Source: an uncultured Bacteroidota bacterium
Lineage (GTDB): Bacteria; CLD3; SB21
Reading direction: 5' to 3'
NCBI GenBank assembly: GCA_964535295.1
Contig: CAZHUW010000001.1
Location: forward strand, 677-64,676
Length of the DNA: 64,000 nt
Of the stretch, positions 4,445 through 59,695 are shown in pieces; the stretch's first letter is position 1; every line of letters starts with the position of its first letter. Position numbers and translations under genes: made by a program. The notes under the pieces are model-generated. The model ran no database searches and was not told where the DNA came from. It saw only the letters and a program-made list of their open reading frames with translations.

Positions 4445-5542
4445 CTACGGGATCATTTTTTCTACCGTCTCCGCCATATGGTTGACATCCTGTGAATCCA
4501 CCATGGCAGAATTTGTCACGGTCTTCAGCTGATTGACGACCGCGGCATCGGTATTGGAATCGGTGATAAAAATGAACGGGATGTCCTGATAGGAAGAATT
4601 CTCTCGGATCTGCTGGCAAAAATCGTAACCCGAGATCTCATCGTATTTAAAATCAGAAATGATCACATTCGGTTTCAGTGTACGCAGTGCCGATATACCT
4701 TCCGTGATACTGTCGACCGTTTTAACGGTATGGCCGAGGCCGGTAAGATTTTTTTCGATCACTTTGCGAACGACCATGCTGTGATTGATCACCAAGACCG
4801 AACCCGTTTTTTTTGACGCTTTTTCACTTTCTGCGGGCTTGGCCTCCTCCCCGTCAAACGAGATGATCTTGGGTTTGATGATAAATTGACCGTCTTCCCA
4901 GCTCATCATCTGATCGAGGGCTTCATCATCGTTGAAATCCCTGAGTTTGATATTTTGCAGAACCCCTTTTTCGTAGGTAATGACCGCCGTGTCGCTTCCG
5001 TGGGTCACCTCAAGGCTTCCGGTCAGAGAATTGGATTCGCAGAACGCAATGACTTCCGTAATATGTTTGTCTTTAAGGCTTCCTGAAGGACCCGCCGGCG
5101 CCGCCGATTTCATCTGCTTCGCTTTTTCAGAGACCACGGTATTCGTCTCGCGCAAACGCTGGCTCATGATCTTGCTCATGGCGATCGAGATCGACGGATA
5201 TTTCTCCAGGATCACATCAAAATCATCTTTTTCGAGCACGAAGGTCTCCGTATCCTCGGCCGCATTGACCGTTGCGGATCGCGGTTCCCCGGTCAATAAA
5301 GACATCTCTCCGAAGTAATTGCCGGCGCCGATATGCGCCAGAACTTCATTGTTAGCGGCCATAACGGCAACTTTGCCGCTGAGTACGATATACATTTTAT
5401 CGCCCGGATCCCCGACCTTGCAGATGGTACTGTTGGACTTGAATTGTTTGAATTTCAGTTTTTCTGTGATAAAGTCAATACTATCGCGGCCCAGAGAGCG
5501 GAAAAAAGGTACTTGTTTGAGAATCTCGCCAATTTGAATCAT
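4445..5542 (-). CDS. Multidomain signalling protein: N-terminal cyclic-nucleotide-binding domain, central DUF4388/PATAN-like domain, C-terminal atypical (pseudo-)receiver domain.
   Basis: cNMP signature ...YFGEMSLLTGEPRSATVNA. The C-terminal CheY-like fold has the phospho-Asp (IISDF) and the Thr (FITDS), but the acidic pair reads NH (VLVINHS) and there is no KP motif. GGAGG SD lies 6 nt upstream of the ATG at 5542. Confidence 0.8.
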   Translation of the reverse strand: MIQIGEILKQVPFFRSLGRDSIDFITEKLKFKQFKSNSTICKVGDPGDKMYIVLSGKVAVMAANNEVLAHIGAGNYFGEMSLLTGEPRSATVNAAEDTETFVLEKDDFDVILEKYPSISIAMSKIMSQRLRETNTVVSEKAKQMKSAAPAGPSGSLKDKHITEVIAFCESNSLTGSLEVTHGSDTAVITYEKGVLQNIKLRDFNDDEALDQMMSWEDGQFIIKPKIISFDGEEAKPAESEKASKKTGSVLVINHSMVVRKVIEKNLTGLGHTVKTVDSITEGISALRTLKPNVIISDFKYDEISGYDFCQQIRENSSYQDIPFIFITDSNTDAAVVNQLKTVTNSAMVDSQDVNHMAETVEKMIP

Positions 5543-6835: not shown

Positions 6836-6839
6836 GATT

Positions 6840-11136: not shown

Positions 11137-11949
11137 TCACATCGCCGGCAGAATTGTTTTGATCAATACTTTCATGTTTTTCGGCATTTCCGGACGTCCT
11201 CCCATCAACATGCCGCCTGCAGGCATTCTTCCTCCCCCCATCCCGCCCGGTATCTGTCCGCCAAAATCCGGTTTTTTAAACTCACCCGTTTCCAACCAGA
11301 TACTGACCGGCTTCCCGGATGCCGCATTGATGGCAAAAGGAATATTATCAGAAGATCTCAAAGGAACTTTTAACTCGTAGAACATACCGTCTTTCTGATG
11401 AGTAAGTTTTACAGCAATGCCGGTCAATTCGTATAAGGTCAGTCTCGTCCGGTCTAATTCACCGGGACCAATGATCTCCACTTCATTTAATTGTTTTTTT
11501 GTTCTTTCGTCAAAATGTGCACCAATTTCCTGACGACCATCAGGAGGCAGCATTGGCATACCGCCGCTCCCTCCAATAGGATACCGTATACCTAGAATCT
11601 TGTTTCCAGTTCCGGCAGAATCAAACCACACCGTAAAACCCATGGTCAAGATCTGCATGGCAACGCTTCGGTCGAGCGGCGCAATACCCAAATAAATAAA
11701 ATCCTTGTCAGAGGCGATGCCAACGGCCATTTTTGCATCTCTAATGATTTCCATTTTATTCTTTTCCCATTCATCGTCCATTCCGTCTATCTTTATACTG
11801 CTTTCGTTCCAATAACTGATCATTGAGACAGGGTGAGAGCATCCTGTATTTAATTCAATTAACAGGACCAAGAATCCAAGAGCCACCGGCTTCGCTATTT
11901 TCATTGCCTTCTCCGCTTTTTTGATCAACAAAATCTGATCATTAGACAT
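11137..11949 (-). CDS. Hypothetical lipoprotein with a Gly/Met-rich C-terminal tail.
   Basis: Signal peptide with a lipobox-like LNTGC. C-terminal low-complexity GGQIPGGMGGGRMPAGGMLMGGRPEMP. Confidence 0.5.
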   Translation of the reverse strand: MSNDQILLIKKAEKAMKIAKPVALGFLVLLIELNTGCSHPVSMISYWNESSIKIDGMDDEWEKNKMEIIRDAKMAVGIASDKDFIYLGIAPLDRSVAMQILTMGFTVWFDSAGTGNKILGIRYPIGGSGGMPMLPPDGRQEIGAHFDERTKKQLNEVEIIGPGELDRTRLTLYELTGIAVKLTHQKDGMFYELKVPLRSSDNIPFAINAASGKPVSIWLETGEFKKPDFGGQIPGGMGGGRMPAGGMLMGGRPEMPKNMKVLIKTILPAM

Positions 11950-21636: not shown

Positions 21637-21782
21637 TTTACTCCTTCATTATTATGCTTCAATTACTCCAAGATATTTTTTTTTCTTTTCAATGTCAATA
21701 CAGGTAACTAACCGACCCATCGAGAGTCCAAGCCTAAAATTTGCAAGAGTTAAAATGATGGATTCAGACCCATAAGTCATTC

Positions 21783-22345: not shown

Positions 22346-22386
22346 CAAAAACGCCCCGGTTCATTGCCGGGGCGTTTTTTATTTTA
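22346..22386. terminator. Bidirectional intrinsic terminator.
   Basis: 10-bp GC-rich stem AACGCCCCGG (22350-22359) / CCGGGGCGTT (22367-22376) with a 7-nt loop. Flanked by an A-run and a T-run. Sits between the convergent small ORF and the S41 peptidase gene. Confidence 0.75.
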
Positions 22387-23958: not shown

Positions 23959-23994
23959 AGCATCTCCTTTATCATATATGCACCATACTATTTT

Positions 23995-25572
23995 TTATTT
24001 GCTTTTCAGGCGGGTATCTGTAAATTTTTTTGCCTGAGGAAAATACGTCATCGCCTGTTTCAAAGCCGGGTCATTCTGGAATCGTATCTGAGAGGCCTCA
24101 AAACTGGTCCAGATATACCGCGCCACTTCCGCTTTGACGAGGTTCTTCATCAGTTCCTTATCGGTATTGACTGCGCTCTGATCGATCGGGATACCTTTCT
24201 GCACACCAATATTGAGCATCTCCTGAACATCCGAATCGGTAAAATCAAAGGACTTGCTGAATTGAACGAATTTTGATTTATATTCCTCGCGCAGCTTCGG
24301 CCCGTTCTTTTCAAGATAATTATTGGTGAACTCCCGGAAAACGCCTTTTCCCCAAAGTTTGATATAATAAGCCGTAACCGTATCATTGTCGGTGATCCTG
24401 TAATCCGGTACGATACCGCCGCCGCCGTAGACTTTGCGGCCAACGGAAGTATAAAATACTTTGGATGTATCCGTCTGAAGCGTATCGTTAAGGCGCGCCT
24501 CTCCGTAATAATCCTCCAGCGATTTATGATCGTAGGGACGCTGTATCAAACGGCCGCTGGGCGTGTAATAACGCGCAATAGTAATACGAACGGCGGAGCC
24601 GTCATTGAGATCAAATTGATTTTGAACCAATCCTTTTCCAAAACTACGTTCACCCACAACCAAACCGCGGTCCAGATCCTGAATAGCTCCGGCCACGATC
24701 TCCGACGCCGAGGCCGATCCGCGATTGATCAGTACCACGACCGGGTAATCTCTATACGACTTCTTCTCTGTGGAATAAAATTCCTGGGTAGCTCCCGGAA
24801 TGCGCCCTTTCATGTAAACGATCATTTTACCGCCGGGAATAAATTTATCCACGATCATTTTCGCTTCTTCCAAAATACCGCCCCCGTTATTCCGCATATC
24901 CAGAATAAGTTGCTTCATACCTTTGCCTTCAAGCTCCGTCAGCGCCTGTTCGATCTCTTCTGATGTTGTCTCGGCAAAACGCACAAATCGAATATAACCC
25001 GTTTTATCATCCAACATAAACTTTGCGTCCACGCTGTACACCGGGATCTTATCGCGGATAATATCAAATTCCAATAATTCGTCCAAGCCGGCCCGCTGTA
25101 TGCTGATATGAACGACGGTCCCTTTCGGGCCGCGGAGTTTTGAAACGGCTTCTTCAGTCGTGATGCCTTTGGTGGGAACGTTATTGATCATCATGACCTT
25201 ATCGCCACCCTGAATACCGATCTTCTCCGAAGGACTGCCCGGGATAGGTGTGACAATGGTAAGTTGCCCGTTGATCACATCGATCTGGCTTCCGATCCCT
25301 TCGAAATTACCTTTGAATTCTTCTTTGACCTGTTTCAGTTCTTTTGGGGGAATATAAACGGAATGAGGACCGAGGCTTTTTAGAACCCCGACGATGGCAT
25401 CATCCACTAGTTTGTCCCCATCTACATCTTCAACATACGTTCTAGAAATAAGGTCAAGAACCGTGTTCAGCTTAACGATGTTCTTATAAGCGTTTTGGCC
25501 AACATTTGAAAAGCCCGTCACCGCAATAACGGCTAAAAGAACCAGCAAAGAAAGTCCGATCTTTTTCTTCAT
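23995..25572 (-). CDS. S41-family C-terminal processing peptidase (tandem paralog).
   Basis: 525 aa, colinear with and highly similar to the neighbouring S41 protein. Confidence 0.85.
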   Translation of the reverse strand: MKKKIGLSLLVLLAVIAVTGFSNVGQNAYKNIVKLNTVLDLISRTYVEDVDGDKLVDDAIVGVLKSLGPHSVYIPPKELKQVKEEFKGNFEGIGSQIDVINGQLTIVTPIPGSPSEKIGIQGGDKVMMINNVPTKGITTEEAVSKLRGPKGTVVHISIQRAGLDELLEFDIIRDKIPVYSVDAKFMLDDKTGYIRFVRFAETTSEEIEQALTELEGKGMKQLILDMRNNGGGILEEAKMIVDKFIPGGKMIVYMKGRIPGATQEFYSTEKKSYRDYPVVVLINRGSASASEIVAGAIQDLDRGLVVGERSFGKGLVQNQFDLNDGSAVRITIARYYTPSGRLIQRPYDHKSLEDYYGEARLNDTLQTDTSKVFYTSVGRKVYGGGGIVPDYRITDNDTVTAYYIKLWGKGVFREFTNNYLEKNGPKLREEYKSKFVQFSKSFDFTDSDVQEMLNIGVQKGIPIDQSAVNTDKELMKNLVKAEVARYIWTSFEASQIRFQNDPALKQAMTYFPQAKKFTDTRLKSK

Positions 25573-31561: not shown

Positions 31562-31903
31562 TTACTTTGTTTTTTTATCAGAAGGATAATCTTGCTGCAA
31601 TTTTTCAACGGCCAAGCCGTTCAGGAGACGCTCATCGACTTCAATTTCATCGACGATACCGATAACGGCCGCCTCGATGGATAATTCATTGGGTGTGTCG
31701 GTTATGGCACGCCGGGCTGCGTGCCCGTAGGAGCATATAACCAATTCCCCGATTCCGGCACCAAGCGTGTCCGCCACCACCACCACATTTGTATTCGGCG
31801 CTTTATCAATATTTACTGGATGAATCATGAGGAATCGGAGCGATTTGACATTATCCACTTTTTTTGTGGCCCAAACCGTTCCAACAACGCGTCCGATGAA
31901 CAT
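31562..31903 (-). CDS. EutN/CcmL/PduN-family bacterial-microcompartment vertex (BMC-P) protein homolog. Solitary within this window.
   Basis: 113 aa. GTVWATKKVDNVKSLRFLMIH...VVADTLGAGIGELVICSYGHAARRA...IEAAVIGIVDEI aligns block-for-block with CcmL/EutN. ~20-residue charged C-terminal extension. Confidence 0.75.
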   Translation of the reverse strand: MFIGRVVGTVWATKKVDNVKSLRFLMIHPVNIDKAPNTNVVVVADTLGAGIGELVICSYGHAARRAITDTPNELSIEAAVIGIVDEIEVDERLLNGLAVEKLQQDYPSDKKTK

Positions 31904-31921: not shown

Positions 31922-33427
31922 TTAAAAAATAATCATATAAACGGCCAAGCCTCCCGCCAGTCCACAAACCATATTGACCCGGTCATTATGAAAAAACTCC
32001 CAGCCGCGTATCAGCGTCGTGACCTTTTCGCAGTGTATCCTGCGCTCGGTCACTTTACCGCAAAGATCACATATATATTGCGACTGAAGGGTTGCTCCCA
32101 GCATGCTGTCAACAAGGCTCCCGATGACTCCTGACAAGATAATCCAAAAAAAACTCATCTCCAACGAACTTTTCAAAAATAACTCCGGATTGACCAGATA
32201 ACCGCTGACAGCAACACAAAACGCGCCGGCCGCCCCCCCTAATGTACCCAATAGCGAGACGCCTCCCGAAGTGCCCGGCGCCACTTTTTTCAATGTTAGA
32301 ATACTCCTGGGAGTCGATTTAAAAAATACGCCGATCTCGGTAGCCCACGTATCGCTTGTTACGGCTGCTAAAATACCCAAAAAGACCGGATACCAGTTGG
32401 GATGCGGAAAATAGAAGGCCCCGATGATTATGATACCAGCAAGCCCGCCGTTGGCAATGACCTGTGCAGCATCACGTGTACTGCCCTTTTCAAAAACGAG
32501 ATCGAATTTCTTCTTGCGCCGTTTTCCCATCTTGGACAGAAGGCTCGACGTTACAAAAAAAGTCATGATCGGCGCCGCCCAAACCCAACCCCCCAAGCCA
32601 AATATCAATGTTCCCAAAAGAAAGGCTGTTACAGCGCCTCCGGCATTGAGAAAACGGAAGTAATGAGATAAAATTGAAACCACCAGTGACAACAAACTTC
32701 CAAATGCGAATTGAAAGGCCGCAGAATCGGGAAAATTGGTCATGACCTGAACGGTGAATGCAACGCCGAGCGGTATGGTCATATTATCGGATCCTTTAGC
32801 GGAAACAGCCTCCGCAGCCGTTGCAACCAATGAGCCTGTAAAGGCCGTCAGCAACGCCAGTTCCCATGACCACGTTAGAAACTCCCAGCGGTCAAGAAAA
32901 TAAAACGAGATCAAGATCACGCCGAAAGAGACCACCAACATCCCGGCTGATCCTTCGAGACTTTTATTATCGCCAGTCAAATTGTAGTTGTGCGGATGCG
33001 TGAAACGGGTACCAATAAGTGCCGCTGATGCATCGCCGACAGCCAAAACCAGCATTGCCGTCATGAGAGCGGGTTTGTTGCTTTCCCAACATAAGAACGT
33101 AAGAAGCGTAAAAGCAAGAGGATACCAAGCTGTGCCATACGTCAGGCGCCCTGTTCCGTGCATGCCTTTCAGCCAATGAAACCGGACCGCCAAATAATCA
33201 AAAACGGTAAAAAAGGTCCCGAGTATTACGGCGGGCATTTTAGAAGTTAAAAAAAGCGGGGATACGAAAACCAGAAGCCCCGTTCCCACGTGCGTGATCT
33301 TTCTGGTGATCTCTCCGCTCCAATGAAAATGGCGGCGGATCAATTCAACCGACGTCAACAAGGTTCCGAGAATAAAAAAAGCGGAGAAACCGTAGTACCA
33401 ATCCTGTGGCAAGTTAAGATCGTTCAT
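31922..33427 (-). CDS. Integral-membrane fusion: N-terminal CTP-dependent polyprenol kinase-like domain (dolichol kinase / phytol kinase VTE5 family) plus C-terminal DUF92/COG1836 (TMEM19/VTE6-like) domain.
   Basis: The N-terminal half carries RKITHVGTG, LAVGDASAALIG and KSLEGSAGM, the polyprenol-kinase hallmarks. The C-terminal half is a Gly-rich polytopic region typical of DUF92. Confidence 0.55.
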   Translation of the reverse strand: MNDLNLPQDWYYGFSAFFILGTLLTSVELIRRHFHWSGEITRKITHVGTGLLVFVSPLFLTSKMPAVILGTFFTVFDYLAVRFHWLKGMHGTGRLTYGTAWYPLAFTLLTFLCWESNKPALMTAMLVLAVGDASAALIGTRFTHPHNYNLTGDNKSLEGSAGMLVVSFGVILISFYFLDRWEFLTWSWELALLTAFTGSLVATAAEAVSAKGSDNMTIPLGVAFTVQVMTNFPDSAAFQFAFGSLLSLVVSILSHYFRFLNAGGAVTAFLLGTLIFGLGGWVWAAPIMTFFVTSSLLSKMGKRRKKKFDLVFEKGSTRDAAQVIANGGLAGIIIIGAFYFPHPNWYPVFLGILAAVTSDTWATEIGVFFKSTPRSILTLKKVAPGTSGGVSLLGTLGGAAGAFCVAVSGYLVNPELFLKSSLEMSFFWIILSGVIGSLVDSMLGATLQSQYICDLCGKVTERRIHCEKVTTLIRGWEFFHNDRVNMVCGLAGGLAVYMIIF

Positions 33428-33430: not shown

Positions 33431-33661
33431 CTATACGGCGGAATGGGCCGATTGTTTGTTGCGTTCCGAAGCACGGGATTTGAGAGGTACTCCGTCATTG
33501 GACAGCACTTCGAAGGGACAAATTTCTACGCAAAAATTACATTCTGTGCAACTGGCGTGAATGACGCTCAGGCGAACTTCAGTCAGCTCCATCGCATCGA
33601 AAGGACATACGCCGACGCAGGCGCCGCAGAGATCACATTTATCGTAATTGATCTGGATCAT
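33431..33661 (-). CDS. 2x[4Fe-4S] ferredoxin.
   Basis: Two CxxCxxCxxxCP motifs (CDLCGACVGVCP and CTECNFCVEICP) in 76 aa. Confidence 0.85.
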   Translation of the reverse strand: MIQINYDKCDLCGACVGVCPFDAMELTEVRLSVIHASCTECNFCVEICPFEVLSNDGVPLKSRASERNKQSAHSAV

Positions 33662-33669: not shown

Positions 33670-34809
33670 TTACACTTTGTCGAGGGCATTTTTGATATCA
33701 CTGATCAAATCTTCCGCATCCTCGCATCCGACGGAGAGACGGACCAGTCCGTCCGTCAGGTTTAGTTTTAACCGGTCTTCGAGCGGAACGGAACCGTGTG
33801 TCATACTCGCCGGGTGACAGATGAGGCTTTCCACTCCACCTAAGCTTTCAGCTAAAGCGAATATCTTAACATGGCGCAGTAAATTCTTTCCGTTCTCCAG
33901 CGATCCCAATTCGATCGAGATCATACCGCCGAATCCGCTCATTTGTTTTTTGGCAAGTTCATGCTGCGGATGCGAAGCGAGGCCGGGATAATATACTTTC
34001 TTAACTTTATTGTGCCCATTCAGGAAATTGGCCATCTGTATGGCATTCTCATTATGCTGGCGCATGCGCAGGGCCAGGGTTTTAGTGGAGCGCATCACGA
34101 GCCAACAGTCGAACGGCGAAGGCACACCGCCGATCGCGTTCTGCAGAAAGCGCAATTTTTCATGAAGATCCTGTCCGCTAGTAACAATGATCCCTCCGAT
34201 GACGTCGCTGTGGCCGTTGATATACTTCGTCGTGCTGTGCAATACGATATCGATGCCGAATTCCAACGGACGCTGAAAATAAGGGCTCATGAAAGTATTG
34301 TCTACAACGGTAATGAATTTATGTTTTTTACCAATTTCCGTCACGGCATTGAGGTCCGTGATGGTCAGCATCGGATTGGTCGGCGTTTCGACGTAGATCA
34401 TTTTTGTTTCTTTGGTGATCGCCGCCTTAATATTTTTCATATCCGACGTATCCACCCAAGAAAAGGTCAGGCCGTAGCGGCGCATGATCTTATCAAAAAA
34501 ACGGAACGTGCCGCCGTACACATTATCGGATACGATCACATGGTCGCCGGCGCTCAATAATCCCGCAACCGCCTGAATGGCCGACATACCGCTGGAGAAT
34601 GCAAGACCGAATTTGCCTTTCTCAAGCGCGGCGATATTATTTTCAAGCGCGACACGGGTCGGGTTAATCGTTCGTCCGTAGTCAAAACCCTTGCTGACGC
34701 CCAATTCCTCCTGAGCGTACGTAGAGGTCTGGTAGATCGGTGTGATGACGGCGCCGGTTGTTGGATCGGCTGTCTGGCCTGCGTGAATCGAATCTGTCAA
34801 AAAACCCAT
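33670..34809 (-). CDS. PLP-dependent transsulfuration enzyme (cystathionine gamma-lyase / gamma-synthase / methionine gamma-lyase family).
   Basis: 379 aa, Cys/Met-metabolism PLP fold. Lys-containing STTKYINGHSD motif. Sits next to cystathionine beta-synthase, so probably the gamma-lyase of reverse transsulfuration. Confidence 0.8.
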   Translation of the reverse strand: MGFLTDSIHAGQTADPTTGAVITPIYQTSTYAQEELGVSKGFDYGRTINPTRVALENNIAALEKGKFGLAFSSGMSAIQAVAGLLSAGDHVIVSDNVYGGTFRFFDKIMRRYGLTFSWVDTSDMKNIKAAITKETKMIYVETPTNPMLTITDLNAVTEIGKKHKFITVVDNTFMSPYFQRPLEFGIDIVLHSTTKYINGHSDVIGGIIVTSGQDLHEKLRFLQNAIGGVPSPFDCWLVMRSTKTLALRMRQHNENAIQMANFLNGHNKVKKVYYPGLASHPQHELAKKQMSGFGGMISIELGSLENGKNLLRHVKIFALAESLGGVESLICHPASMTHGSVPLEDRLKLNLTDGLVRLSVGCEDAEDLISDIKNALDKV

Positions 34810-34835: not shown

Positions 34836-36182
34836 TTATTTTCCTGCCAAATAATCCAGAAGGTCGATGCGTGTCATGATACTGATCGGCTTACGTTGTT
34901 CGTCCACCACAACCACCGCCCCGCTCTGACGAAATATTTCCTGCAGGGTCGAGATCGGTGTATTCGGCCCGACCATCGGCACCTGGCGGTTCATGCATTT
35001 TGAAATGAGAGCCGCGCTTTGGCCTGCGCCTGAACTCAAATATTCGATGAGATCGGATTCCGAAACAATACCTACCAGCACGCCGCCGGACGTAACGGGT
35101 AATTGGGAGATCCCTTTTTGACGCATAACGGCAATCACATTCTGCACGGTCTGCATATCATCGGAACAGACCAACTGCGGACGCTGGGACTGATCGAGGA
35201 TATCTTTGACCTTTCCCTGAATAGGTTTCGTTTCAAAGAATTTATTCTCGCGCATCCACTTGTCGTCCACGAACTTGGTCATATAATTACGCACGCCGTC
35301 GGGCAAAACCACAATACAATTCTGTCCCTCTTTCAATTTCGGCGCCTTCTGCAGAGCCGCGAATAAAGCCGATCCGCTGGAACCGCCGACAAGCAATCCT
35401 TCTTCGCGTATCAGGCGTCGCGATAATAAGAACGACGGCTGGTCCTCCGTTTTGACCCATTCATCGATCAGTGACCTGTCAAGCACATCCGGAACAAAAT
35501 CATACCCGATGCCTTCAACTTTGTAAGTTCCGACATCCGTTCCTCCGCCGAGGATCGAACCTACCGGATCCGCGCCGACCACGATACATTTAGGATTATG
35601 TTCTTTCAATCTCTTTGCTACTCCAGTGATCGAACCGCCGGTGCCGGCGCCCATCACGACCATGTCGATCTTCCCGTTAAGATCCTCGATCATTTCCCGC
35701 GCCGTTTCATTGTAATGAACGTTCGGGTTGTTAGGGTTGGAATATTGATCCAGAATATGCGCATTGGGCAGTTCTGACTGCAGGCGCCGCGCCACGCTGA
35801 TATGGCTTTCCGGAGAATCAAACGACGCTTCCGTCGGGGTTCGGATGATCTCCGCGCCTAAAGCTTCGAGTACAACTTGTTTTTCACGGCTCATTTTTTC
35901 CGGCATCGTAATGATCACGCGGTAGCCGCGAACAGCACCCGCTAAAGCTATTCCGATACCGGTATTGCCGCTGGTCGGTTCGATCAACGTATCGCCCGGT
36001 TTGATTCGGCCCTCGCGTTCCGCGGCTTCGACCATGGATTTGCCGATGCGGTCTTTGAGTGAACCGCCGGGATTAAGGAATTCACATTTGGCATATAGAT
36101 TACAGGCCAGATGTGCGCCAACCCGGTTCAGTTTGACTAGCGGCGTTCGCCCGATAACTTCGATAATGTTATTAAACTTCAT
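34836..36182 (-). CDS. Cystathionine beta-synthase-like protein: CysK/CysM-type PLP domain with a C-terminal CBS-domain pair.
   Basis: N-terminus KLNRV...PGGSLKDRIG...SGNTGIGIALAG (PLP fold type II) followed by two CBS motifs. 448 aa. Confidence 0.8.
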   Translation of the reverse strand: MKFNNIIEVIGRTPLVKLNRVGAHLACNLYAKCEFLNPGGSLKDRIGKSMVEAAEREGRIKPGDTLIEPTSGNTGIGIALAGAVRGYRVIITMPEKMSREKQVVLEALGAEIIRTPTEASFDSPESHISVARRLQSELPNAHILDQYSNPNNPNVHYNETAREMIEDLNGKIDMVVMGAGTGGSITGVAKRLKEHNPKCIVVGADPVGSILGGGTDVGTYKVEGIGYDFVPDVLDRSLIDEWVKTEDQPSFLLSRRLIREEGLLVGGSSGSALFAALQKAPKLKEGQNCIVVLPDGVRNYMTKFVDDKWMRENKFFETKPIQGKVKDILDQSQRPQLVCSDDMQTVQNVIAVMRQKGISQLPVTSGGVLVGIVSESDLIEYLSSGAGQSAALISKCMNRQVPMVGPNTPISTLQEIFRQSGAVVVVDEQRKPISIMTRIDLLDYLAGK

Positions 36183-36225: not shown

Positions 36226-36633
36226 TCAGAAGTAGATCTCTTTTTTGGCTATCATGGCCTGCAGACGGTCGGATTCTTCCAGCGATTTTTTCACAAATTC
36301 ATTGGTCTTGGTCTTATCCTCGCCGAGAACTACCAAGAAGGCATCCGAGAGCAATTGCGTCAGAACAAAGACCCTTTTGGCGCCAACGGTTACCGTAGTT
36401 TGTATATCTTCGCGCATGCCGTCGGACGAGGTCGATGCCGGAACCGAAAAGATCCTTTTCCCGTGATCGAGAAATACCGATGCAAACGAACCGAGCTGAG
36501 CCTCCGCATCATCGTCTTTGACATTGGAGTGCAGGGCCAGTCCATCGGAAGAAATGATCACCACGGATGTTCCGGGAGCGATCTTTTCAAGGTGTGTGAT
36601 GGTCTGATCAAAAAATTCTTTATGAGAGATCAT
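36226..36633 (-). CDS. Roadblock/LC7 (MglB-like) domain protein.
   Basis: 135 aa with the alpha-beta-beta-alpha-beta pattern (VVIISSDGLALHSN...). Weaker match than its neighbour. Confidence 0.5.
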   Translation of the reverse strand: MISHKEFFDQTITHLEKIAPGTSVVIISSDGLALHSNVKDDDAEAQLGSFASVFLDHGKRIFSVPASTSSDGMREDIQTTVTVGAKRVFVLTQLLSDAFLVVLGEDKTKTNEFVKKSLEESDRLQAMIAKKEIYF

Positions 36634-36645
36634 GGCTTACCTTCG

Positions 36646-36996
36646 CTAATTCACGTGTGATTTGAGTTCTTTCATGGCGCAGCTGATATCATAAAGGACG
36701 AGCCCCAGCTTGGCACTGGTGGTGGTAAAAACGGTCAGCAGCGTATCTTTGCCGGCGCGGGTAATGATGATAAAACCTTCCTTACCACGGATGGAGATCT
36801 GCGACATTTCGCCAAGCATGGCGTCCTCGGCGCTGGTCTCGCCCTGATTGATCAAGGCCGCCGAGATCGCGGCGACGCGTTCATCTTCAATATTATCGGG
36901 AAGAAGGGAAGCGATGATGAGACCGTCGTTGCTCACCAACGCGACGGCGCTCACACCGGGTGTATCGTTTCTTAAGCGCTTGAGGATTTCTTCCAT
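36646..36996 (-). CDS. Roadblock/LC7 (MglB-like) domain protein.
   Basis: 116 aa. VSAVALVSNDGLIIASLLPD...GFIIITRAGKDTLLTVFT is a typical Roadblock fold signature. Confidence 0.65.
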   Translation of the reverse strand: MEEILKRLRNDTPGVSAVALVSNDGLIIASLLPDNIEDERVAAISAALINQGETSAEDAMLGEMSQISIRGKEGFIIITRAGKDTLLTVFTTTSAKLGLVLYDISCAMKELKSHVN

Positions 36997-37118
36997 TGTC
37001 CACCTGTTATAATGAGTTTAACCGAGGGAGAGATATGATTTTGAATGGGGCAAATTAAAGAGAAAATCGAATAAAGTCAACGTACAAAAACCGGTATTGG
37101 GTCAGAGGAAGTCGTGCG

Positions 37119-37484
37119 TCAGGCGTCGGCTTCACGGTAACTCTGGACGGCAGAATCCAGATCGTCATAAAATTCGAACACCCGGTCGAGTTTGGCGATC
37201 TCAAACATTTTGGAGACTTTTTCGTGCGCTCCGATGATACGCAGGTCCCCGTCTTCGGCATTGAATATCCTCCGCCCGAGCAGAAGGGACCCCAGGCCGG
37301 AACTATCGATAAAATCCACAGCCGAGAGATCGACCACGACTTCATGAATACCTGCGTCCTTCATTTTTAAAAATTCCTGTTTGTACAAGTGGGATATCCG
37401 GCTGTCCATGCGCGCATCTTTGATGTGCATGACCGTTACTTCATTGACATCCTCTTCTGTAAAATTGATCTGCTTTTCTTCCAT
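37119..37484 (-). CDS. STAS-domain anti-sigma-factor antagonist (SpoIIAA-like).
   Basis: 121 aa. VDLSAVDFIDSSGLGSLL carries the conserved phosphorylatable Ser in the DSSG motif. Confidence 0.8.
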   Translation of the reverse strand: MEEKQINFTEEDVNEVTVMHIKDARMDSRISHLYKQEFLKMKDAGIHEVVVDLSAVDFIDSSGLGSLLLGRRIFNAEDGDLRIIGAHEKVSKMFEIAKLDRVFEFYDDLDSAVQSYREADA

Positions 37485-37529: not shown

Positions 37530-38513
37530 CTAAACTGCCAGATGGCAGCTGACAAAGTGATCCTTACTGATCTCTTTCAATTCAGGCCGAACCTCACGGC
37601 ATTCCGGTTTCACCAGCGGGCATCGCGATTGAAATGCGCAACCCTGATGTGCGGCCGACGCTTTTTGAACTTCACCTTTGAGTAACATCCGTTCTTTTCT
37701 TGAATCCGGATCCGGTACAGGTACTGCCGACAACAAGGCCTGCGTATATGGATGCAGCGGCTTCACATATAATATCTCTTTATCAGCTAATTCAACTATC
37801 CGCCCGAGATACATCACCGCTACCCGGTTCGAAATATGACGCACGACCGAAAGATCGTGCGCAATGAATAAATACGTCAGCGAAAGCTGTTTCTGAAGGT
37901 CGGTCAAAAGATTTACTATCTGCGCCTGTATCGACACGTCGAGTGCGGAAACAGGTTCGTCGCAGACGATGAATTTCGGTTCCACCGCGAGCGCCCGTGC
38001 AATGCCGATCCGCTGACGCTGTCCGCCTGAAAATTCATGCGGATATTTATACCGGTTCGCCGGCGAGAGTCCAACCATATCCAATAGTTCTTTAATTCGG
38101 CTGTCAACCTCATCGCCTTCCGCCAGGCGGTGAAACACCAGTATTTCCCGCAGCATGGTATCCACATTTAACCTCGGGTTGAGAGAACTGAAAGGGTCCT
38201 GAAACACGATCTGTAAGTGCCGGCGGTAAGGACGAATCTCTCGATGGGGTAAGCCGGTTATGTCCGTACCGGCATAAAGTACCTGGCCGGCGGTGGGTTC
38301 AACCAGCCGAAGCAAACATCTTCCTGTTGTGCTTTTGCCGCATCCTGACTCGCCAACCAGACCCAGCGTTTCGGACGCCCGAATGTCAAAGGACACGCCG
38401 TCCACCGCTTTCACCGCATGAACTTTCCTGCCGAAAAATCCTTGCGACGATTCGTAATATTTTTGCAGGTTCTGAACGCGGATCAGTGGAACGGCAGAAT
38501 GTGATTCGATCAT
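37530..38513 (-). CDS. Oligopeptide/dipeptide-type ABC transporter ATP-binding protein (OppF/DppF-like), with no adjacent permease or substrate-binding protein.
   Basis: Walker [10 protein letters not shown], signature [15 protein letters not shown], Walker B IVCDEP. Cys-rich OppF-type C-terminal extension. Confidence 0.85.
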
Positions 38514-38737
38514 GAACTCTTAAGTGAACTGAAAACTTTCTTTTCCAAAAGTACGGCAGGATCGATGAAAAGTCAAGCAAGCCGCGGATATTTTTATATT
38601 CGAAGAGAATTTACTTGGATGATATCTCCTCGGCATCTTTATCAATATAGAAACAATTTTTCCCCCTTGACCCTTAACCCCAAAAGCCGGAAATTGCAGA
38701 TATAGATTGAACCTTTTTCCTGAACGGGAATTACATC

Positions 38738-40314: not shown

Positions 40315-43300
40315 GTGATTCGGATTTTCTTCAAATCGTTCGTGGCATTCGTCTTTCTTCTTTTTTCAAGAACGGCCGCGTTTGCTCAAACTACCCTCGA
40401 ATTTGACCAATGGACGACTGCGCACGGACTATCTCAGGTCAGCGTATTTGCCATGATGCAGGACCGCGAAGGATATCTATGGTTCGCCACGGAGAACGGC
40501 CTCAATCAATTCGACGGATATCAGTTCACCCATTACACCCATTCTCTTTTTGATTCCAATTCCCTCTCCGATCAACTGGTCTACACCATGATCGAGGACA
40601 ATGATGGGATCATGTGGATCGCCTGTTTCGGAGGCGGACTGAACCGCTTTGACCGGCGTACAGGACAATTCATCCACTACCGCCACGATCCGAAGAATCC
40701 GGTATCGATCAGCAGTGATTTCGTAACCACGCTTTACATCTCTCCCTCTGATCCGAAAACGCTATGGATCGGTACCGACCGCGGCGGGCTGAACCGGATG
40801 GATATGGCCGCAGGTACATTCACACGTTTTATGAATAAAACCGGCGATTCAACCTCGTTGTGCAATGACCGAATCTACGCCCTCAGCGGCGATGAACTCG
40901 GCAACATCTGGGCCGGTACACGCAGCGGGCTCGCGCGGCTTGATATACTAAAAATGGCCTTTACCAATTTTTTTGCAGATCCGAAAAGCGCCAATTCTAT
41001 CAGCCACAATGAGATCTGGCATATTTTCAAAGATCGCGACGGGCTATTATGGATATCCTCTACCGGCGGCCTGACGCGCTGCGATCCGAAAGGCCTGCAA
41101 TTCAAAGTCTATCGCCACGACGCGGCCAATACTAAGTCCCTTCCTCATCAAAAGGTCTGGGCATCCTGCGACGACAGCCGCATCCATAATGAATTCCTCT
41201 GGGTTGGCACCAATCAAGGCCTTGCCCGCATGAATAAACAGACCGGCGAATGTACCGTCTTTCAGCACGAGGATGGCAACCCCCGTAGTATCGGCCACAA
41301 TCAGGTATGGGCATTGTACAACGACCGGCAGGATAATATCTGGATCGGCAGTTTCGGCGGCGGCGTTAACCGTATCAATCGTTCCAAAGAAAAATTCAAT
41401 CACTACCATAACATCGCTTCAGATCCTAATTCTATCCGTCACAATGAAATGTGGTCTCTGTATGAAGATCATAGCGGAAATATATGGGCCGGACACCGCA
41501 AAGGGATCGACGTTTTGAGTTCCGGCGGCAAACGCATCTTATCCATTGACAACGAGAACGGCAATGAGAGCTCTCTTAAGATCAAAGGTACGCGTGTTCA
41601 GGCTGTCACTGAAGATACCGACGGTAACATGTGGTTCGGAACGGACGGCGCGGGGTTATATCGTTTTGATCCGCGTAATAAAAGGATGACCCATTTCCAA
41701 AATAATGATAAAGATTCCTCCAGTTTAAGCCACGATTTCGTTTCTTATATTTATGAGAGTAAGCATGCCGGTGAACGCAGCCTATGGATCTGCACGAACG
41801 GCGGCCTTAACCGGTTTGATCCACGTACCAACAGGTTTACCAGATATAAAACCGATCCTAATAACCCAAAAAGCATCAGCCATGACCGCGTGCGTTTTAT
41901 CACTGAAGACCGGCAGGGAACTATGTGGATTGGCACGTACGGCGGCATCGATAAGTTTGATCAGGTAACCGGCATCTTCACTCATCACGCGCATGATCCG
42001 GAAACAGAAGGTTCCCTCAGCGAAAACAGGGTATGGGTCATTCATGAAGCCACCGATGGGACGTTGTGGGTCGGCACGCATATCGGCCTCAACCGAATGG
42101 ACAAAACAACCGGCCGCTTCACGGTATTCACGGTACGCGAAGGCTTGCCGAGCAATGAGATCTACGGCATTTGCGAGGACGGTTCCGGTAATCTTTGGAT
42201 GAGTACGAGCCGGGGCTTGAGCAAACTGGATCCCCGAACAGAACGATTCACGAATTATTTCGAGGACGACGGGCTGCAAAGCAATGAATTCAACGGCGCG
42301 GTGTTCGCACAGGGACGCAGCGGGCATATGTACTTTGGCGGTATCAATGGTTTCACCGCGTTTGATCCCAAGAACGTAGTTCCGGAGAACGATCCGCCGC
42401 CGGTCATACTCTCCACGTTCAGAAAATTCGATCAGCCTGTATTGAAAGACCGCGCCTTGAACAAATTGTCTGAGATCGAACTCTCTTATGCGGATAATTT
42501 TTTCGGATTTGAATTCTCCACGCTCAATTACCACAATGTAGCGAAAAACCAATACCGTTATCGTCTCGAAGGATTCGATCCGGACTGGATCGCGAGCGGG
42601 AACCGCCGTTACGCAACGTATACCAATCTTGATCCGGGTAATTACCGCTTCCACGTAACGGCAGCCAATAGCGACGGCGTTTGGAATCCGGAAGGCGTTG
42701 TGATCAACGTCCGCATTCTTCCTCCCTGGTGGCAAACATGGTGGTTCCGTTTGCTCGCCGCATCGGCATTGATCGGGCTTATGTTCACCGTCTACCGTAT
42801 CCGCGTGGAAAGGCTTCTCGCGATCGAACGCATGCGCACGCGCATCGCCAGCGACCTCCACGACGATATCGGCGCCACGCTCACCCGTATTGCCGTGGGA
42901 TCGGAAATGATACAGAATTCCAGTGACGGTGAAAAAATAAAATCCCAGGCAGGGCGAATCGGAGAACTCAGCCGTGAAGTGATCCGCACCTTCAGTGATG
43001 TAATATGGTCCATTGATGCCCGAAACGATTCACTGGGCGACCTCGTCGCGCGATTACAGGATACGGCTTATCAGGTTTTATCTGCCAAAGAGATCGCGTT
43101 CACACTGGAACCGCGCGGCTTACAAGACGACAAGGCCCTACAAGTGGATATCCGGCAGAATCTTTATCTTATCTGCAAGGAAGCACTCAACAATATTGCA
43201 AAACATTCCGGCGCCAATATGGTCTCCCTCGTTTTCGAACAGACCGGAGGAGAACTCACTATCACGATCCGGGACAACGGACGCGGCTTGCCTGAAAAAA

Positions 43301-43419
43301 CTCGTGAACAAGGTAACGGGTTGCGTAATATGCGATTACGCGGAGAAAGAATTAACGCAAGCATTTCATGGAAAAACGATAACGGCTGTATCATGGAATT
43401 ACGTTGCCCGATCAGCTGA
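40315..43419 (+). CDS. Sensor histidine kinase with periplasmic two-component-regulator propeller (Reg_prop) repeats and a Y_Y_Y domain, a TM helix, HisKA_3 and HATPase_c domains.
   Basis: Many ~45-aa repeats (G.W.GT..GL..FD....F) characteristic of Reg_prop. TM WWFRLLAASALIGLMF. H-box IASDLHDDIG. G-boxes near the C-terminus. No receiver domain. Confidence 0.9.
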   Translation: MIRIFFKSFVAFVFLLFSRTAAFAQTTLEFDQWTTAHGLSQVSVFAMMQDREGYLWFATENGLNQFDGYQFTHYTHSLFDSNSLSDQLVYTMIEDNDGIMWIACFGGGLNRFDRRTGQFIHYRHDPKNPVSISSDFVTTLYISPSDPKTLWIGTDRGGLNRMDMAAGTFTRFMNKTGDSTSLCNDRIYALSGDELGNIWAGTRSGLARLDILKMAFTNFFADPKSANSISHNEIWHIFKDRDGLLWISSTGGLTRCDPKGLQFKVYRHDAANTKSLPHQKVWASCDDSRIHNEFLWVGTNQGLARMNKQTGECTVFQHEDGNPRSIGHNQVWALYNDRQDNIWIGSFGGGVNRINRSKEKFNHYHNIASDPNSIRHNEMWSLYEDHSGNIWAGHRKGIDVLSSGGKRILSIDNENGNESSLKIKGTRVQAVTEDTDGNMWFGTDGAGLYRFDPRNKRMTHFQNNDKDSSSLSHDFVSYIYESKHAGERSLWICTNGGLNRFDPRTNRFTRYKTDPNNPKSISHDRVRFITEDRQGTMWIGTYGGIDKFDQVTGIFTHHAHDPETEGSLSENRVWVIHEATDGTLWVGTHIGLNRMDKTTGRFTVFTVREGLPSNEIYGICEDGSGNLWMSTSRGLSKLDPRTERFTNYFEDDGLQSNEFNGAVFAQGRSGHMYFGGINGFTAFDPKNVVPENDPPPVILSTFRKFDQPVLKDRALNKLSEIELSYADNFFGFEFSTLNYHNVAKNQYRYRLEGFDPDWIASGNRRYATYTNLDPGNYRFHVTAANSDGVWNPEGVVINVRILPPWWQTWWFRLLAASALIGLMFTVYRIRVERLLAIERMRTRIASDLHDDIGATLTRIAVGSEMIQNSSDGEKIKSQAGRIGELSREVIRTFSDVIWSIDARNDSLGDLVARLQDTAYQVLSAKEIAFTLEPRGLQDDKALQVDIRQNLYLICKEALNNIAKHSGANMVSLVFEQTGGELTITIRDNGRGLPEKTREQGNGLRNMRLRGERINASISWKNDNGCIMELRCPIS

Positions 43420-44122: not shown

Positions 44123-44350
44123 ATCTTTCCCCTATCTTGAACAAGGTAACCTAAGAACTTTTCAAAGGGCTCAATAAGTGTGAGCATGTCCAATAAAATC
44201 TTTTGTACTTTAAAATACATTTTAGAACAACGTTAGAAGAAACCATTCCATATCCAGGCATTAGCCTATGAATCTTTGATTTTTTTTGACTTTTGAAGAA
44301 TATTTTGATACTTTCACCCGCGCAAAACAAAACATAAACCTTACAACAAA

Positions 44351-45461
44351 ATGATCGAAATCTCCAACATCACTGCACGACTGGAACAAGCCCGCGAAAA
44401 ACTCTCCGACCTTCGGAGGTTTCTTTGACCTCGCTCAAAGAGAAGAAAAAATATCCAATTTAGAAGCCCAAACCACCGTCGCCGATTTCTGGAATAATAA
44501 CCAGCGAGCACAACAGATCATGCAGGAGATTTCATCAGAAAAATCCTGGGTTGAAGGTTGGAAAAAACTTGACGTGCAGTGCGAAGACCTTCACATGCTT
44601 CTCGAAATTGCCGAAGAAGAAAACGATGAGGCCACTCTAAAATCCATTGATTCCGAGTTGACTGAACTCGGCAAGGAGTTATCGAAACTAGAGCTTCGCG
44701 CCTATTTCACGAACCCGGAAGATACCAAAACAGCGGTGCTTACCATTCATCCCGGAGCCGGAGGAACGGAATCCCAGGATTGGGCCGAAATGCTCATGCG
44801 CATGTATCAGCGCTGGGGCGTTAACCGAGGAATGCACGTACAAATACTCGATATTCTTGACGGCGAAGGGGCAGGTATTAAAAGCGTTACCATGGAATTT
44901 ACCGGTGAATTTGCATATGGTCTCTTAAAATGTGAAAGCGGAGTTCATCGTCTGGTAAGAATCTCGCCTTTCGACTCTAACGCACGGCGACACACGTCTT
45001 TTGCCTCCGTATTCGCCATGCCGGAATTGGATGAGGTCGAAGCAAAGATTGAGATCAATCCGTCGGACCTGAAAGTTGATACTTACAGGTCAGGCGGGAA
45101 AGGCGGACAAAACGTTAACAAAGTCGAGACTGCAGTTCGTTTTACCCATATTCCCACCGGGATTGTTGTGGCCTGCCAGAGCGAACGATCACAATTCAAA
45201 AACCGCGAAATTGCGATGAAACTGCTTATTTCTAAATTATATCAGTTGCAAAAACGGAATGAACAGGAAAAGCTTGACAAGATCGAAGCAACAAAATCAG
45301 ACATTGCCTGGGGAAATCAAATCCGATCCTACGTATTACATCCGTATAATCTCGTAAAAGACCATCGTACCGAGATGGAGACAAGCAATACGCAGGCCGT
45401 ACTTGGCGGTGATATTGACATGTTCATTGAAGCCTGTTTAAAAAATAAAATTGTTTCATAA
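44351..45461 (+). CDS. prfB: Peptide chain release factor 2, requiring a programmed +1 ribosomal frameshift at 44423-44429 (CTT TGA C).
   Basis: ORF1 ([25 protein letters not shown]) ends at in-frame TGA 44426-44428. The +1 frame continues [15 protein letters not shown]...SPF...GGQNVN (GGQ motif) to 45461. An internal SD-like GGAGG lies 3 nt upstream of the CTTTGAC shift site, as in E. coli prfB. Confidence 0.85.
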
Positions 45462-47191: not shown

Positions 47192-47221
47192 TTGACTTTT
47201 AGGGCAATGATGTGTTACATT
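47192..47221 (+). promoter_or_regulatory. Putative sigma70-type promoter for the PfkB kinase gene.
   Basis: TTGACT (47192-47197), ~18 nt, then TGtTACATT. Overlaps the dyad CAATGatgtgttaCATTG. About 50 nt upstream of the TTG start with a GGAG SD. Confidence 0.3.
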
Positions 47222-57785: not shown

Positions 57786-57929
57786 ATGAACTCAGAGATA
57801 CTAAATATTCTTCTGATTTTTATAGGCCTGGTCGGTTTTACGTTTATGATCTATATCAGCCGCAGCCAACGTAAAAAGATCGGCGAGCGTAAAAACAAGA
57901 TCAAAAACGCCTGGAGAGACCGGTTGTGA
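57786..57929 (+). CDS. Candidate 47-aa single-TM peptide (MNSEILNILLIFIGLVGFTFMIYISRSQRKKIGERKNKIKNAWRDRL). Its stop overlaps the GTG start of the phosphatase gene.
   Basis: Open frame below the 60-aa cutoff. One hydrophobic helix then a Lys/Arg-rich tail. TGA 57927-57929 overlaps GTG 57926-57928. The SD is weak. Confidence 0.3.
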   Translation: MNSEILNILLIFIGLVGFTFMIYISRSQRKKIGERKNKIKNAWRDRL

Positions 57930-59695
57930 CAGACGATCCGAACAAAAAAGAGCTGGACAAACAAGCTTTGATCAAGGGCGAAGTTCAGGACGACGTCGAC
58001 CGTAAACTGCTTGAATTGTCCGCCCTTTTTGAGATCAGCCAGTTATTGAACTCCTCCCTTAATCTCAATTCCATCGTTGACAACATCCTGCTTTCCCCGA
58101 TGGGGCGTATGATGATCAATAAGGGATTATTCCTGCTGCACCGCGGCGAGAACCAATTTGAAATCTTCACGCTCAAAGGCCTTTCCAGAGAACTCATCGG
58201 AAAGAGAATCGCCTTGCCGGATCTGCCCCTTAAACCTTTTCTTATCGATGAGATAAAAGATGGCCGGTTCCCGTGGTTGTCTTTTTTTACCGAATTTGAT
58301 ATAAAATTATTTGTCCCGATCATTCTACGTAACGACGTCCTGGGGCTTGTGGCTTTCGGAAAAAAACTTATCGGAAAGAATTATATAGAAAGCGAAATCG
58401 AATTCCTTTCTTCGATCGCCAATATTGCGGCTACCAGTATCCAGAACGGTATCGTTTTCGAGGAGTTACGGAGCGTAAATGCACGTCTGGATAAGAAGAT
58501 CCAGGAACTCAACACCCTGTTCGACATCGGCAAAGAACTCAACGCCACGCTGGAATCGGCTAAGATAGCGCGCCTTCTTTCTTACGGCCTGATGGGCGAA
58601 ATGATGCTCAACAAGTTCGTGATCCTCGTTCGCCGTAACGAAACTATACAGATACTTGAAAAGCGCGCTTTCCCCAACATGGATCTCGCGCATCCGTCGC
58701 TTGAACTTTTATTTAATATCTCACATCCCTACTCTATGGAGGATTCAGAAGAAAGTGATCTGAATGCCGAATTGCTTCAACACGATGTTTCAGCCGTGGT
58801 TCCAATGCGATCGCAGGACCGAACCAAAGGCCTCCTGCTTCTTGGACAAAGGATCTCCAAGAAGAACTATACCCGGGAGGAACTAGATTTTTTGTATACC
58901 CTGGGAAATCAGGCCATGATCTCGCTGGAGAACGCCTGGCTATTTGAGGATTCATTGGAACGGAAGCGCCTTGAAGAAGAGCTTCTTGTTGCACGGAACA
59001 TTCAAATCGGCTTATTACCCGATTGTTTTCCCGATCTGAAAACTTTCGAAGTGTACGGCGTTAATATTTCATCGAAGCAGGTCGGCGGGGATTATTTCGA
59101 CGTGATCAAAGTGGATGAAGACAACTACATCGTGGCCATCGCGGACGTATCCGGTAAAGGAATCCCTGCTTCCCTACTGATGAGTAATGTACAGGCAAGC
59201 CTGCTGGCGCTGAGTACGGAGGTCAAGGCATTCGATCACCTCGTTGCAAAGGTGAACAATATCATTCATGCCAACACAACAGCGGATAAGTTCATTACCT
59301 TCTTCGGTGGAATACTTAATATTAAAGATCGTACGTTCACTTATGTGAATGCCGGCCACAACCCGCCTTACTGGGTCAAAACTGATGGAACCCTTCAAAC
59401 GCTTGACAAAGGCGGTTTGTTGTTGGGGCTCATGCCGGATGTACCTTATGAGTTCGAGATCATTCAAATGCAGCCCGATGAAAAGATCGTCATGTTCACC
59501 GACGGCGTCACGGAAGCTATGAACGAAAAAGAGGAACAATTCGAAGAGCCCAGGCTGGAAGAATTACTGAAATCCAATCGTAAATTGTCTGCTAAAGATT
59601 GCACAGAGCTCATTGCACAAGAGGTCAAGACTTTTGAGGGCAATGCGCCGCAATCCGACGATATTACCGTTGTCGTTATCAGGGCTCTTAAATAA
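57926..59695 (+). CDS. GAF-domain PP2C-type serine phosphatase (SpoIIE/RsbU family).
   Basis: Two GAF-like regions, then a PPM domain with metal-binding Asp motifs (VGGDYFDV, IADVSGKGIPAS, FTDGVTEA). Confidence 0.85.
   Translation: MTDDPNKKELDKQALIKGEVQDDVDRKLLELSALFEISQLLNSSLNLNSIVDNILLSPMGRMMINKGLFLLHRGENQFEIFTLKGLSRELIGKRIALPDLPLKPFLIDEIKDGRFPWLSFFTEFDIKLFVPIILRNDVLGLVAFGKKLIGKNYIESEIEFLSSIANIAATSIQNGIVFEELRSVNARLDKKIQELNTLFDIGKELNATLESAKIARLLSYGLMGEMMLNKFVILVRRNETIQILEKRAFPNMDLAHPSLELLFNISHPYSMEDSEESDLNAELLQHDVSAVVPMRSQDRTKGLLLLGQRISKKNYTREELDFLYTLGNQAMISLENAWLFEDSLERKRLEEELLVARNIQIGLLPDCFPDLKTFEVYGVNISSKQVGGDYFDVIKVDEDNYIVAIADVSGKGIPASLLMSNVQASLLALSTEVKAFDHLVAKVNNIIHANTTADKFITFFGGILNIKDRTFTYVNAGHNPPYWVKTDGTLQTLDKGGLLLGLMPDVPYEFEIIQMQPDEKIVMFTDGVTEAMNEKEEQFEEPRLEELLKSNRKLSAKDCTELIAQEVKTFEGNAPQSDDITVVVIRALK

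Follow-up and report, generated by a model that had tools for sequence, protein, structure and literature searches.

Two Roadblock/LC7 genes, invariably paired, next to an ABC ATPase-STAS gene couple in an uncultured Bacteroidota bacterium

We analyzed 64,000 nucleotides (nt) of an uncultured Bacteroidota bacterium (GenBank assembly GCA_964535295.1, contig CAZHUW010000001.1, positions 677 to 64,676, forward strand), a stretch hereafter called the window, and more particularly three small genes encoding a STAS protein and two Roadblock/LC7 proteins, R1 and R2. A first-pass annotation, made from the letters alone, had proposed that these genes could form a single partner-switching or polarity module. 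This proposal was not supported, as the STAS gene tracks an upstream ATP-binding cassette (ABC) ATPase gene among relatives and a promoter-like element divides it from R1. The reading that we favour, with moderate confidence, is one of two adjacent units, the first made of the ABC ATPase and STAS genes and the second headed by R1 and R2, whose products would form a heterodimer serving a nucleoside triphosphatase (NTPase) encoded away from the locus. The features concerned are the following (positions in the window):

37530..38513, minus strand: DppF/OppF-like ABC ATPase, 327 amino acids (aa), heading the co-directional array
37119..37484, minus strand: STAS protein, 121 aa, single-domain, SpoIIAA/RsbV type (PF01740, TIGR00377)
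36646..36996, minus strand: R1, 116 aa, canonical Roadblock/LC7 protein (PF03259, AlphaFold2 [AF2], Foldseek)
36226..36633, minus strand: R2, 135 aa, divergent Roadblock paralogue (hhalign, AF2, Foldseek)
34836..36182, minus strand: cystathionine beta-synthase (CBS; TIGR01137, 599 bits, cut-off 510)
33670..34809, minus strand: cystathionine gamma-lyase-like gene (CGL; PF01053)
38548..38576, minus strand: promoter-like element P1, TTGACT-N17-TACTTT, 63 nt 5′ of the ABC ATPase start codon
37052..37080, minus strand: promoter-like element P2, TTGACT-N17-TAATTT, 84 nt 5′ of R1, within the STAS-R1 gap

The three small genes are on the minus strand, with the coordinates first given for them, and the gap announced between the STAS gene and the Roadblock pair indeed measures 122 nt. 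The other gaps of the window are shorter: 45 nt between the ABC ATPase and STAS genes, 12 nt between R1 and R2, and 43 nt between R2 and CBS. The minus-strand run proceeds from the ABC ATPase gene through STAS, R1, R2, CBS and CGL to further genes which, according to their labels in syntenic relatives, encode a ferredoxin, a DUF92 protein, an EutN/CcmL-like protein, BamA, VanZ, FtsY and a GH57 enzyme.

The neighbourhoods of 13 lineages, the window included, were compared, together with a rough neighbour-joining tree of R1 plus R2. R1 and R2 were adjacent in 13/13 lineages and never more than 15 nt apart, while the genes upstream of them varied:

ABC-STAS-R1-R2: 7/13 lineages (window/L009, L005, L006, L007/8, L094, L099/100, L103/104)
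ABC-R1-R2 without STAS: 1/13 (L001-3)
R1-R2 without ABC and STAS: 5/13 (L004, L010/L090, L097/98, L101, L102)

The three-gene order was therefore found in 7/13 lineages and failed in 6/13, where R1-R2 persist without STAS. Throughout the 13 lineages, the STAS gene was seen solely directly 3′ of the ABC ATPase gene, and never without that gene upstream. Over the lineages, the gaps ranged from −4 to 98 nt for ABC-STAS, 96 to 212 nt for STAS-R1, 1 to 15 nt for R1-R2, and 11 to 56 nt between R2 and the next gene. The tree placed the lineages carrying ABC and STAS in one core clade, implying at least 2 or 3 losses, and the outgroup lineages L004 and L101 carried R1-R2 alone, without ABC and STAS. 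Close homologues of R1 came only from uncultured lineages, labelled, where named, "Bacteroidota bacterium", "Bacteroidetes bacterium" or simply "bacterium". Besides the source of the 65.9-kb contig studied here, the pair occurs in the assemblies GCA_013360215.1, GCA_035338095.1, GCA_964563165.1, GCA_019695335.1, GCA_037445875.1 and GCA_964410965.1. A scan of genome contigs with R1 returned mostly generic Roadblocks (37-48% identity) and one in-clade locus, and a scan of metagenomes with in-clade R1 returned at least 4 loci. In one relative, a gene for a Por_Secre_tail protein stands beside the R1-R2 pair.

The coupling of the STAS gene to its upstream neighbour is tight. Outside the window, where they lie 45 nt apart, the two genes are separated by 14-98 nt in relatives and overlap by 4 nt in L103 (positions 6255-7525) and L104 (1300-2570). 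Such an overlap suggests translational coupling and a possible partnership of the two products. The ATPase itself (PF00005, 113.6 bits; PF08352 oligo_HPY, 67.2 bits; Walker A GESGCGKS) scored 388 bits on the NCBIfam dipeptide ABC ATP-binding subfamily, slightly below the cut-off of 408. It is encoded as a stand-alone gene, no permease or binding-protein gene being found nearby.

The second line of evidence for two units is the distribution of promoter-like elements, defined here as TTGAC[AT]-N16-18-TAnnnT. In the seven lineages with the full array, this pattern occurs exactly twice per block from ABC to R2, with no match in the ABC-STAS, R1-R2 and R2-next-gene gaps. The P1-type copy lies 63-72 nt 5′ of the ABC ATPase start in the window, L005, L006, L007 and L094, and 135 nt 5′ of it in L103; that of L099 lies within the ABC open reading frame (ORF) as called, the start of which was probably set too far upstream. 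The P2-type copy lies 80-94 nt 5′ of R1 in 7/7 STAS-carrying lineages. Related elements precede R1 in lineages without STAS as well (L001, L010, L097 and, by eye, L004), and in an alignment of the region upstream of R1, a TTGAC...TAnTTT block is conserved whether or not a lineage carries STAS. The defined pattern is over-represented across the window (10 matches for 2.6 expected; 0/100 shuffles reach 10), and comparison with the ORF list placed about half of the 10 matches directly 5′ of gene starts. Judged from its letters, it looks like the housekeeping, sigma-70-like promoter consensus of this organism, and it is unlike the TAnnTTTG promoter type reported in Bacteroides. A standard sigma-70 scanner detected neither P1 nor P2; in our reading, this is because their -10 hexamers, TACTTT and TAATTT, match TATAAT at too few positions. 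Further matches of the pattern were noted at 21670-21698 (minus strand), 44286-44314 (plus strand) and 47192-47221 (plus strand), and the pattern often comes with an extended TTGACTTT -35 element. In most lineages, R1 is preceded by a Shine-Dalgarno-like AGGTG. Neither a stable RNA fold (z = +0.76) nor an Rfam match was obtained for the STAS-R1 gap, on which grounds a riboswitch or an attenuator was rejected.

R1 is readily recognized as a Roadblock protein. It scored 69.8 bits on PF03259 (cut-off 23 bits), and its best sequence match in the PDB was 7f8m, a Thorarchaeota Roadblock (E 2.3e-18). Its AF2 model, one of five being confident, adopts the canonical Roadblock fold with a predicted local distance difference test score (pLDDT) of 88.8. 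Foldseek against the PDB gave template modelling (TM) scores of 0.92-0.95 with Asgard Roadblock3 and 0.91 with Myxococcus xanthus MglB, the top matches being Roadblock, MglB or LAMTOR entries. For R2, the first-pass assignment to Roadblock/LC7 did not stand on the Pfam cut-off (20.7 bits on PF03259, under the 23-bit gathering cut-off). R2 is nevertheless a Roadblock because profile-profile comparison with the R1 family by hhalign (probability 96.3%, E 1.8e-9, 99 columns), its modelled fold and its structural matches all point there. Its AF2 model (pLDDT 81.5) shows an alpha-beta-beta-alpha-beta-beta-beta-alpha topology, in which residues 60-75 form a disordered insertion between alpha2 and beta3 and residues 107-129 a long helix at the C-terminus, and the Foldseek top matches in the PDB were all Roadblock, MglB, dynein LC7 or LAMTOR entries. 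Both proteins are thus members of the Roadblock/LC7 superfamily, but not orthologues of MglB: on the MglB equivalog NF052242, R1 reached 13 bits for a cut-off of 200 and R2 gave no match, and no mglA gene is adjacent. Also, a phmmer search of PDB sequences with R1 reached no MglB chain at E ≤ 1.

The two paralogues evolve at very different rates. In the core clade, identity to the window protein is 83-89% for R1 and 25-56% for R2 (20-56% over all lineages). For comparison, it amounts to 75-86% for CBS and CGL, 60-73% for FtsY, 52-60% for BamA, 50-69% for the ABC ATPase and 50-68% for the STAS protein, so that conservation of R1 matches or exceeds that of CBS and CGL. Helix alpha2 holds many invariant positions in both R1 and R2, and the C-terminus of R2 ends in a conserved KEIxF tail. 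The R2 family counted 22 clusters in a word-indexed search of 5.8 billion proteins, and 20 clusters at E ≤ 0.001 when 1.84 billion representatives were searched exhaustively by profile. Judging by these sequence searches, R2 is a new, small, divergent Roadblock subfamily confined to this clade. We also considered that R2 might be a decaying pseudogene; this was ruled out by its kept length, its invariant positions and its presence in 13/13 lineages. R1 and R2 share one reading frame, the spacer 36634-36648 (minus strand) reading TAG-CGA-AGG-TAA-GCC, with two in-frame stops within 12 nt ahead of the R2 ATG.

The STAS gene encodes, as first annotated, a SpoIIAA-like protein with a DSSG phospho-serine motif. 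It scored 52.3 bits on PF01740 (cut-off 22.6) and 59.9 bits on the anti-sigma-factor antagonist model TIGR00377 (cut-off 53.45), and its closest PDB entries were TM1081, TM1442 and SpoIIAA. The DSSGLG motif (D60-S61-S62-G63-L64-G65) is invariant in six lineages, whose orthologues are otherwise 50-68% identical. Orthology to MlaB was ruled out by 20.7 bits on the MlaB model NF033618, for a cut-off of 90. A metagenome scan with the STAS alignment recovered no relatives, the back-translated patterns being too specific.

What is usually expected around such genes was searched for in the whole window, by Pfam scans of most plausible ORFs of at least 110 aa and by a six-frame scan for Walker A motifs; the ORFs outside the Pfam scans were named by Pfam labels in syntenic relatives, or by our own assignment. 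Neither scan disclosed a small P-loop GTPase (Ras/MglA-like) in the 64 kb. The Walker A matches fell in two ABC ATPases, in FtsY and, by chance, in an ORF which we take to be cyclophilin-like. The Pfam scans of the window and the relatives' flanks revealed neither an RsbW/SpoIIAB-type kinase nor, alongside STAS, a gene for a cognate sigma factor. The initial remark that GTPase and kinase are missing nearby is thus extended to the full window, and Pfam labels over 6-10 kb to each side of the locus in 12 relatives show no mglA-type or other small GTPase gene. The STAS protein is, by sequence definitions, of the SpoIIAA/RsbV type, but it lacks the usual kinase and sigma-factor context. Two more distant genes named in the first-pass annotation were recovered by Pfam at close to the announced distances of 20 and 31 kb:

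57926..59695, plus strand: GAF-GAF-SpoIIE (PP2C-type) phosphatase (PF07228, 159.8 bits, plus GAF domains), 20.4 kb off
4445..5542, minus strand: cNMP_binding-DUF4388(PATAN)-Response_reg protein, 30.7 kb off

The first of these is a candidate, unlinked phosphatase for the STAS protein. As for the second, genes for PATAN proteins are at times neighbours of MglA/MglB genes, according to Makarova 2006 as cited in PMC4316618.

These data lead us to propose the following organization. The first unit, the DppF/OppF-like ABC ATPase and STAS genes, would be driven by P1. The second, comprising R1, R2, CBS and CGL where present, Fer4, DUF92 and following genes, would be driven by P2. CBS and CGL are probably co-transcribed with R1-R2, judging from the gap between them, which holds no promoter-like element. 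A heterodimer of R1 and R2 best fits their strict pairing, their close spacing and the combination of one constrained and one fast-evolving partner, and is the most likely assembly given the invariant gene pairing. In such a dimer, R1 would provide the constrained core and conserved interface, and R2 would be a fast-evolving adaptor making lineage-specific contacts through its extra loop and C-terminal helix. Roadblock proteins form dimers that serve NTPases, small GTPases in most cases, as platforms (PMC10933270). By analogy with MglB/MglC, LAMTOR2/3 and the systems in which a single MglA is coupled to two MglB proteins, the R1-R2 dimer may offer a flat platform for binding and regulating an NTPase whose gene lies elsewhere in the genome; a small Ras-like GTPase is the most probable candidate. 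Such pairings of two MglB paralogues with one MglA are documented (PMC4316618). In the same survey (Wuichet and Sogaard-Andersen 2015), 328/749 MglB-family genes were orphans, that is, not within four genes of an MglA homologue, and these were uncharacterised when surveyed. Among the 79 closest out-of-clade R1 homologue loci that we examined, about 7 had a small GTPase-like ORF within 4 kb. Given both figures, it is not unusual for a Roadblock gene to lack a GTPase gene next to it.

For the first unit, the tight and sometimes overlapping gene coupling suggests that the STAS protein acts on or with the ABC ATPase, loosely as MlaB does with MlaF. Its phosphorylation would probably depend on an unlinked RsbW-type kinase, and its dephosphorylation probably on a SpoIIE/PP2C phosphatase, for example the GAF-SpoIIE protein 20 kb off.

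Several observations weigh against this proposal of two units and a heterodimer. The closest out-of-clade homologues of R1 are single genes, and R1 may be able to form homodimers too. The partner of R1-R2 is not encoded locally, and a GTPase in this role is putative. P1 and P2 are consensus matches read from sequence. As the STAS-R1 gap lacks a terminator-like hairpin, transcription started at P1 may run on into R1-R2, though this is not needed. Finally, L103 keeps the ABC-STAS-R1-R2 order though its R2 is just 32% identical, and some selection for this adjacency is possible.

The last two points bear on whether STAS, R1 and R2 nevertheless constitute one module, in which phosphorylation of the STAS protein would control its binding to the Roadblock dimer, with no local kinase or GTPase. 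The shared strand, the terminator-free gap, the adjacency kept in 7/13 lineages (the divergent L103 among them) and the phosphorylatable serine retained in STAS would all agree with it. Still, we hold it to be unlikely, since R1-R2 persist in 6 lineages from which STAS is missing, through independent losses, since every lineage checked has a promoter-like element between STAS and R1, or 5′ of R1 where STAS is missing, and since the overlap in L103 ties STAS more closely to the ABC gene. Moreover, no STAS relative occurred at any of the 79 loci of out-of-clade R1 homologues examined, and a full-text literature search found no paper with both Robl_LC7 and STAS. A larger assembly was envisaged as well, namely a four-gene NTPase switch in which the Roadblock dimer regulates the soluble DppF-like ABC ATPase in place of a GTPase and STAS is a second regulator, as MlaB is for MlaF. 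The Roadblock superfamily was first proposed as general NTPase regulators (Koonin and Aravind 2000, as cited in PMC10933270), the ATPase has its Walker A motif and no permease gene nearby, and ABC-STAS-R1-R2 is the commonest arrangement (7/13). We give this switch little credence: R1-R2 occur in 5 lineages with no ABC gene nearby and ABC occurs without STAS in 1, the promoter-like elements are separate, the score of STAS on the MlaB model is 20.7 bits instead of 90, and the ATPase is otherwise a typical DppF/OppF protein, the permeases of which may be encoded elsewhere. That such a four-protein switch would also gate the downstream transsulfuration/envelope operon, in expression or activity, seems very improbable; if true, it would amount to a Ragulator-like platform for nutrient sensing in bacteria, based on an ABC ATPase.

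R1 and R2 could also serve their own operon, as a regulator or assembly factor for CBS-CGL, Fer4, DUF92, the EutN-like protein, BamA and FtsY, for example as a Ragulator-like sensor of nutrients or sulfur amino acids. In every lineage with downstream sequence available, the pair lies 11-56 nt 5′ of CBS-CGL or Fer4-DUF92, the gap being free of promoter-like elements, and R1 is conserved as much as housekeeping enzymes. However, the downstream partner varies. L010, L090 and L102 lack CBS and CGL and have Fer4-DUF92 directly after R2, and the array ends at CGL in L094. Also, the whole region is broadly syntenic in the clade, so that adjacency may merely reflect inheritance, and we are aware of no earlier case in which Roadblock proteins act on such enzymes. 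We thus regard this role as improbable.

Our preferred reading, an orphan Roadblock pair beside an ABC-STAS unit, is of interest for several reasons. In one survey, close to half of the family consisted of orphan Roadblock genes, none of which had been characterised at its writing (2014), and the present locus provides a clean example of an orphan pair, with clear boundaries, a promoter-like element and defined lineages for comparison. R2 is a paralogue missed by current Pfam thresholds. Once found, the partner of R1-R2 would show the role of such pairs without an adjacent GTPase gene. In practical terms, the DppF-like ABC ATPase gene, to which the STAS gene is coupled, is the one to study alongside it, and not the Roadblock genes. 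Neither the orphan pair nor the ABC-STAS coupling overturns current ideas.

Some further observations were made in the window. A small 2x[4Fe-4S]-type ferredoxin gene (33431..33661, minus strand) always precedes the DUF92 gene (31922-33427, minus strand). The latter encodes a membrane protein of 501 aa in which the TIGR00297 model spans only residues 239-451, the remainder including a fused, conserved N-terminal membrane domain of about 240 aa outside named families. Across the clade, a lone EutN/CcmL-like gene (PF03319, a microcompartment vertex family; 31562-31903, minus strand) lies between DUF92 and BamA, with no other microcompartment shell genes nearby; it is 81-91% identical and at the same place in L001, L005-L008, L010, L097, L099, L102 and L103. 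The prfB gene (release factor 2) has a programmed +1 frameshift site, CTT TGA C, at 44424-44430, preceded by GGAGG, within 44352-44560 (plus strand). In its 313-aa ORF (44520..45461), the PCRF profile matched only from profile position 29, so the N-terminus must lie in another frame, starting from the ATG at 44352. Tandem paralogous genes for S41 peptidases (CtpB-like, PDZ-containing; 524 and 525 aa) occupy 22384-25572 (minus strand). The ORF 40315..43419 is presumably a sensor kinase, and two ORFs, 11137-11949 (minus strand, 270 aa) and 62972-63400 (minus strand, 142 aa), had no Pfam match at the thresholds used.

The STAS protein resembles those of SpoIIAA/RsbV partner switching by its single domain, its TIGR00377 score, its invariant DSSGLG serine motif and the SpoIIE-type phosphatase in the same window. 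It differs in that no RsbW/SpoIIAB-type kinase or cognate sigma factor gene is near it, and in that the neighbour to which its gene is coupled here encodes an ABC ATPase. The STAS protein MlaB binds the ABC ATPase MlaF. The STAS gene placed directly 3′ of an ABC ATPase gene, and overlapping it in one lineage, recalls this couple, but the ATPase is of the DppF/OppF type with an oligo_HPY tail, the STAS score on the MlaB model is far below its cut-off, and MlaE and MlaD genes are absent. On the Roadblock side, CvnB5 of the actinobacterial conservons (CvnA-D; 3leq, E 3.7e-8) and Rv3364c (9hef, E 1.6e-5) are detectable homologues of R1, while the CvnA kinase, CvnC (DUF742) and CvnD GTPase genes of conservons have no counterpart here.

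With MglB/MglC of M. xanthus and the systems with two MglB proteins, the locus shares the Roadblock fold (R1 is 24-25% identical to MglB), a pair of Roadblock paralogues of which one is conserved and the other divergent, and an extended helix at the C-terminus, here in R2. The C-terminal helix of MglB contacts MglA. The differences are the lack of mglA in the 64 kb and in the flanks of the 12 relatives, the low equivalog score of R1, and the smaller size of R1 (116 aa), closer by sequence to single-domain Roadblocks of archaea and Chloroflexota. LAMTOR2/LAMTOR3 (MP1/p14) is a heterodimer of two Roadblock paralogues which forms a GTPase platform. R1-R2, the putative heterodimer described here, is bacterial, and no Rag-like GTPase or p18-like anchor was identified for it. 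The best sequence and structure matches of R1 include the Asgard Roadblocks (7f8m, 9jue, 7yh1), 9jue reaching a TM score of 0.95. The orphan MglB-family genes (PMC4316618) provide a further parallel, as they too are Roadblock genes lying away from an MglA homologue. What sets the present locus apart from them is a fixed pair of paralogues, in which the R2 subfamily is restricted to one clade and which heads a housekeeping operon.

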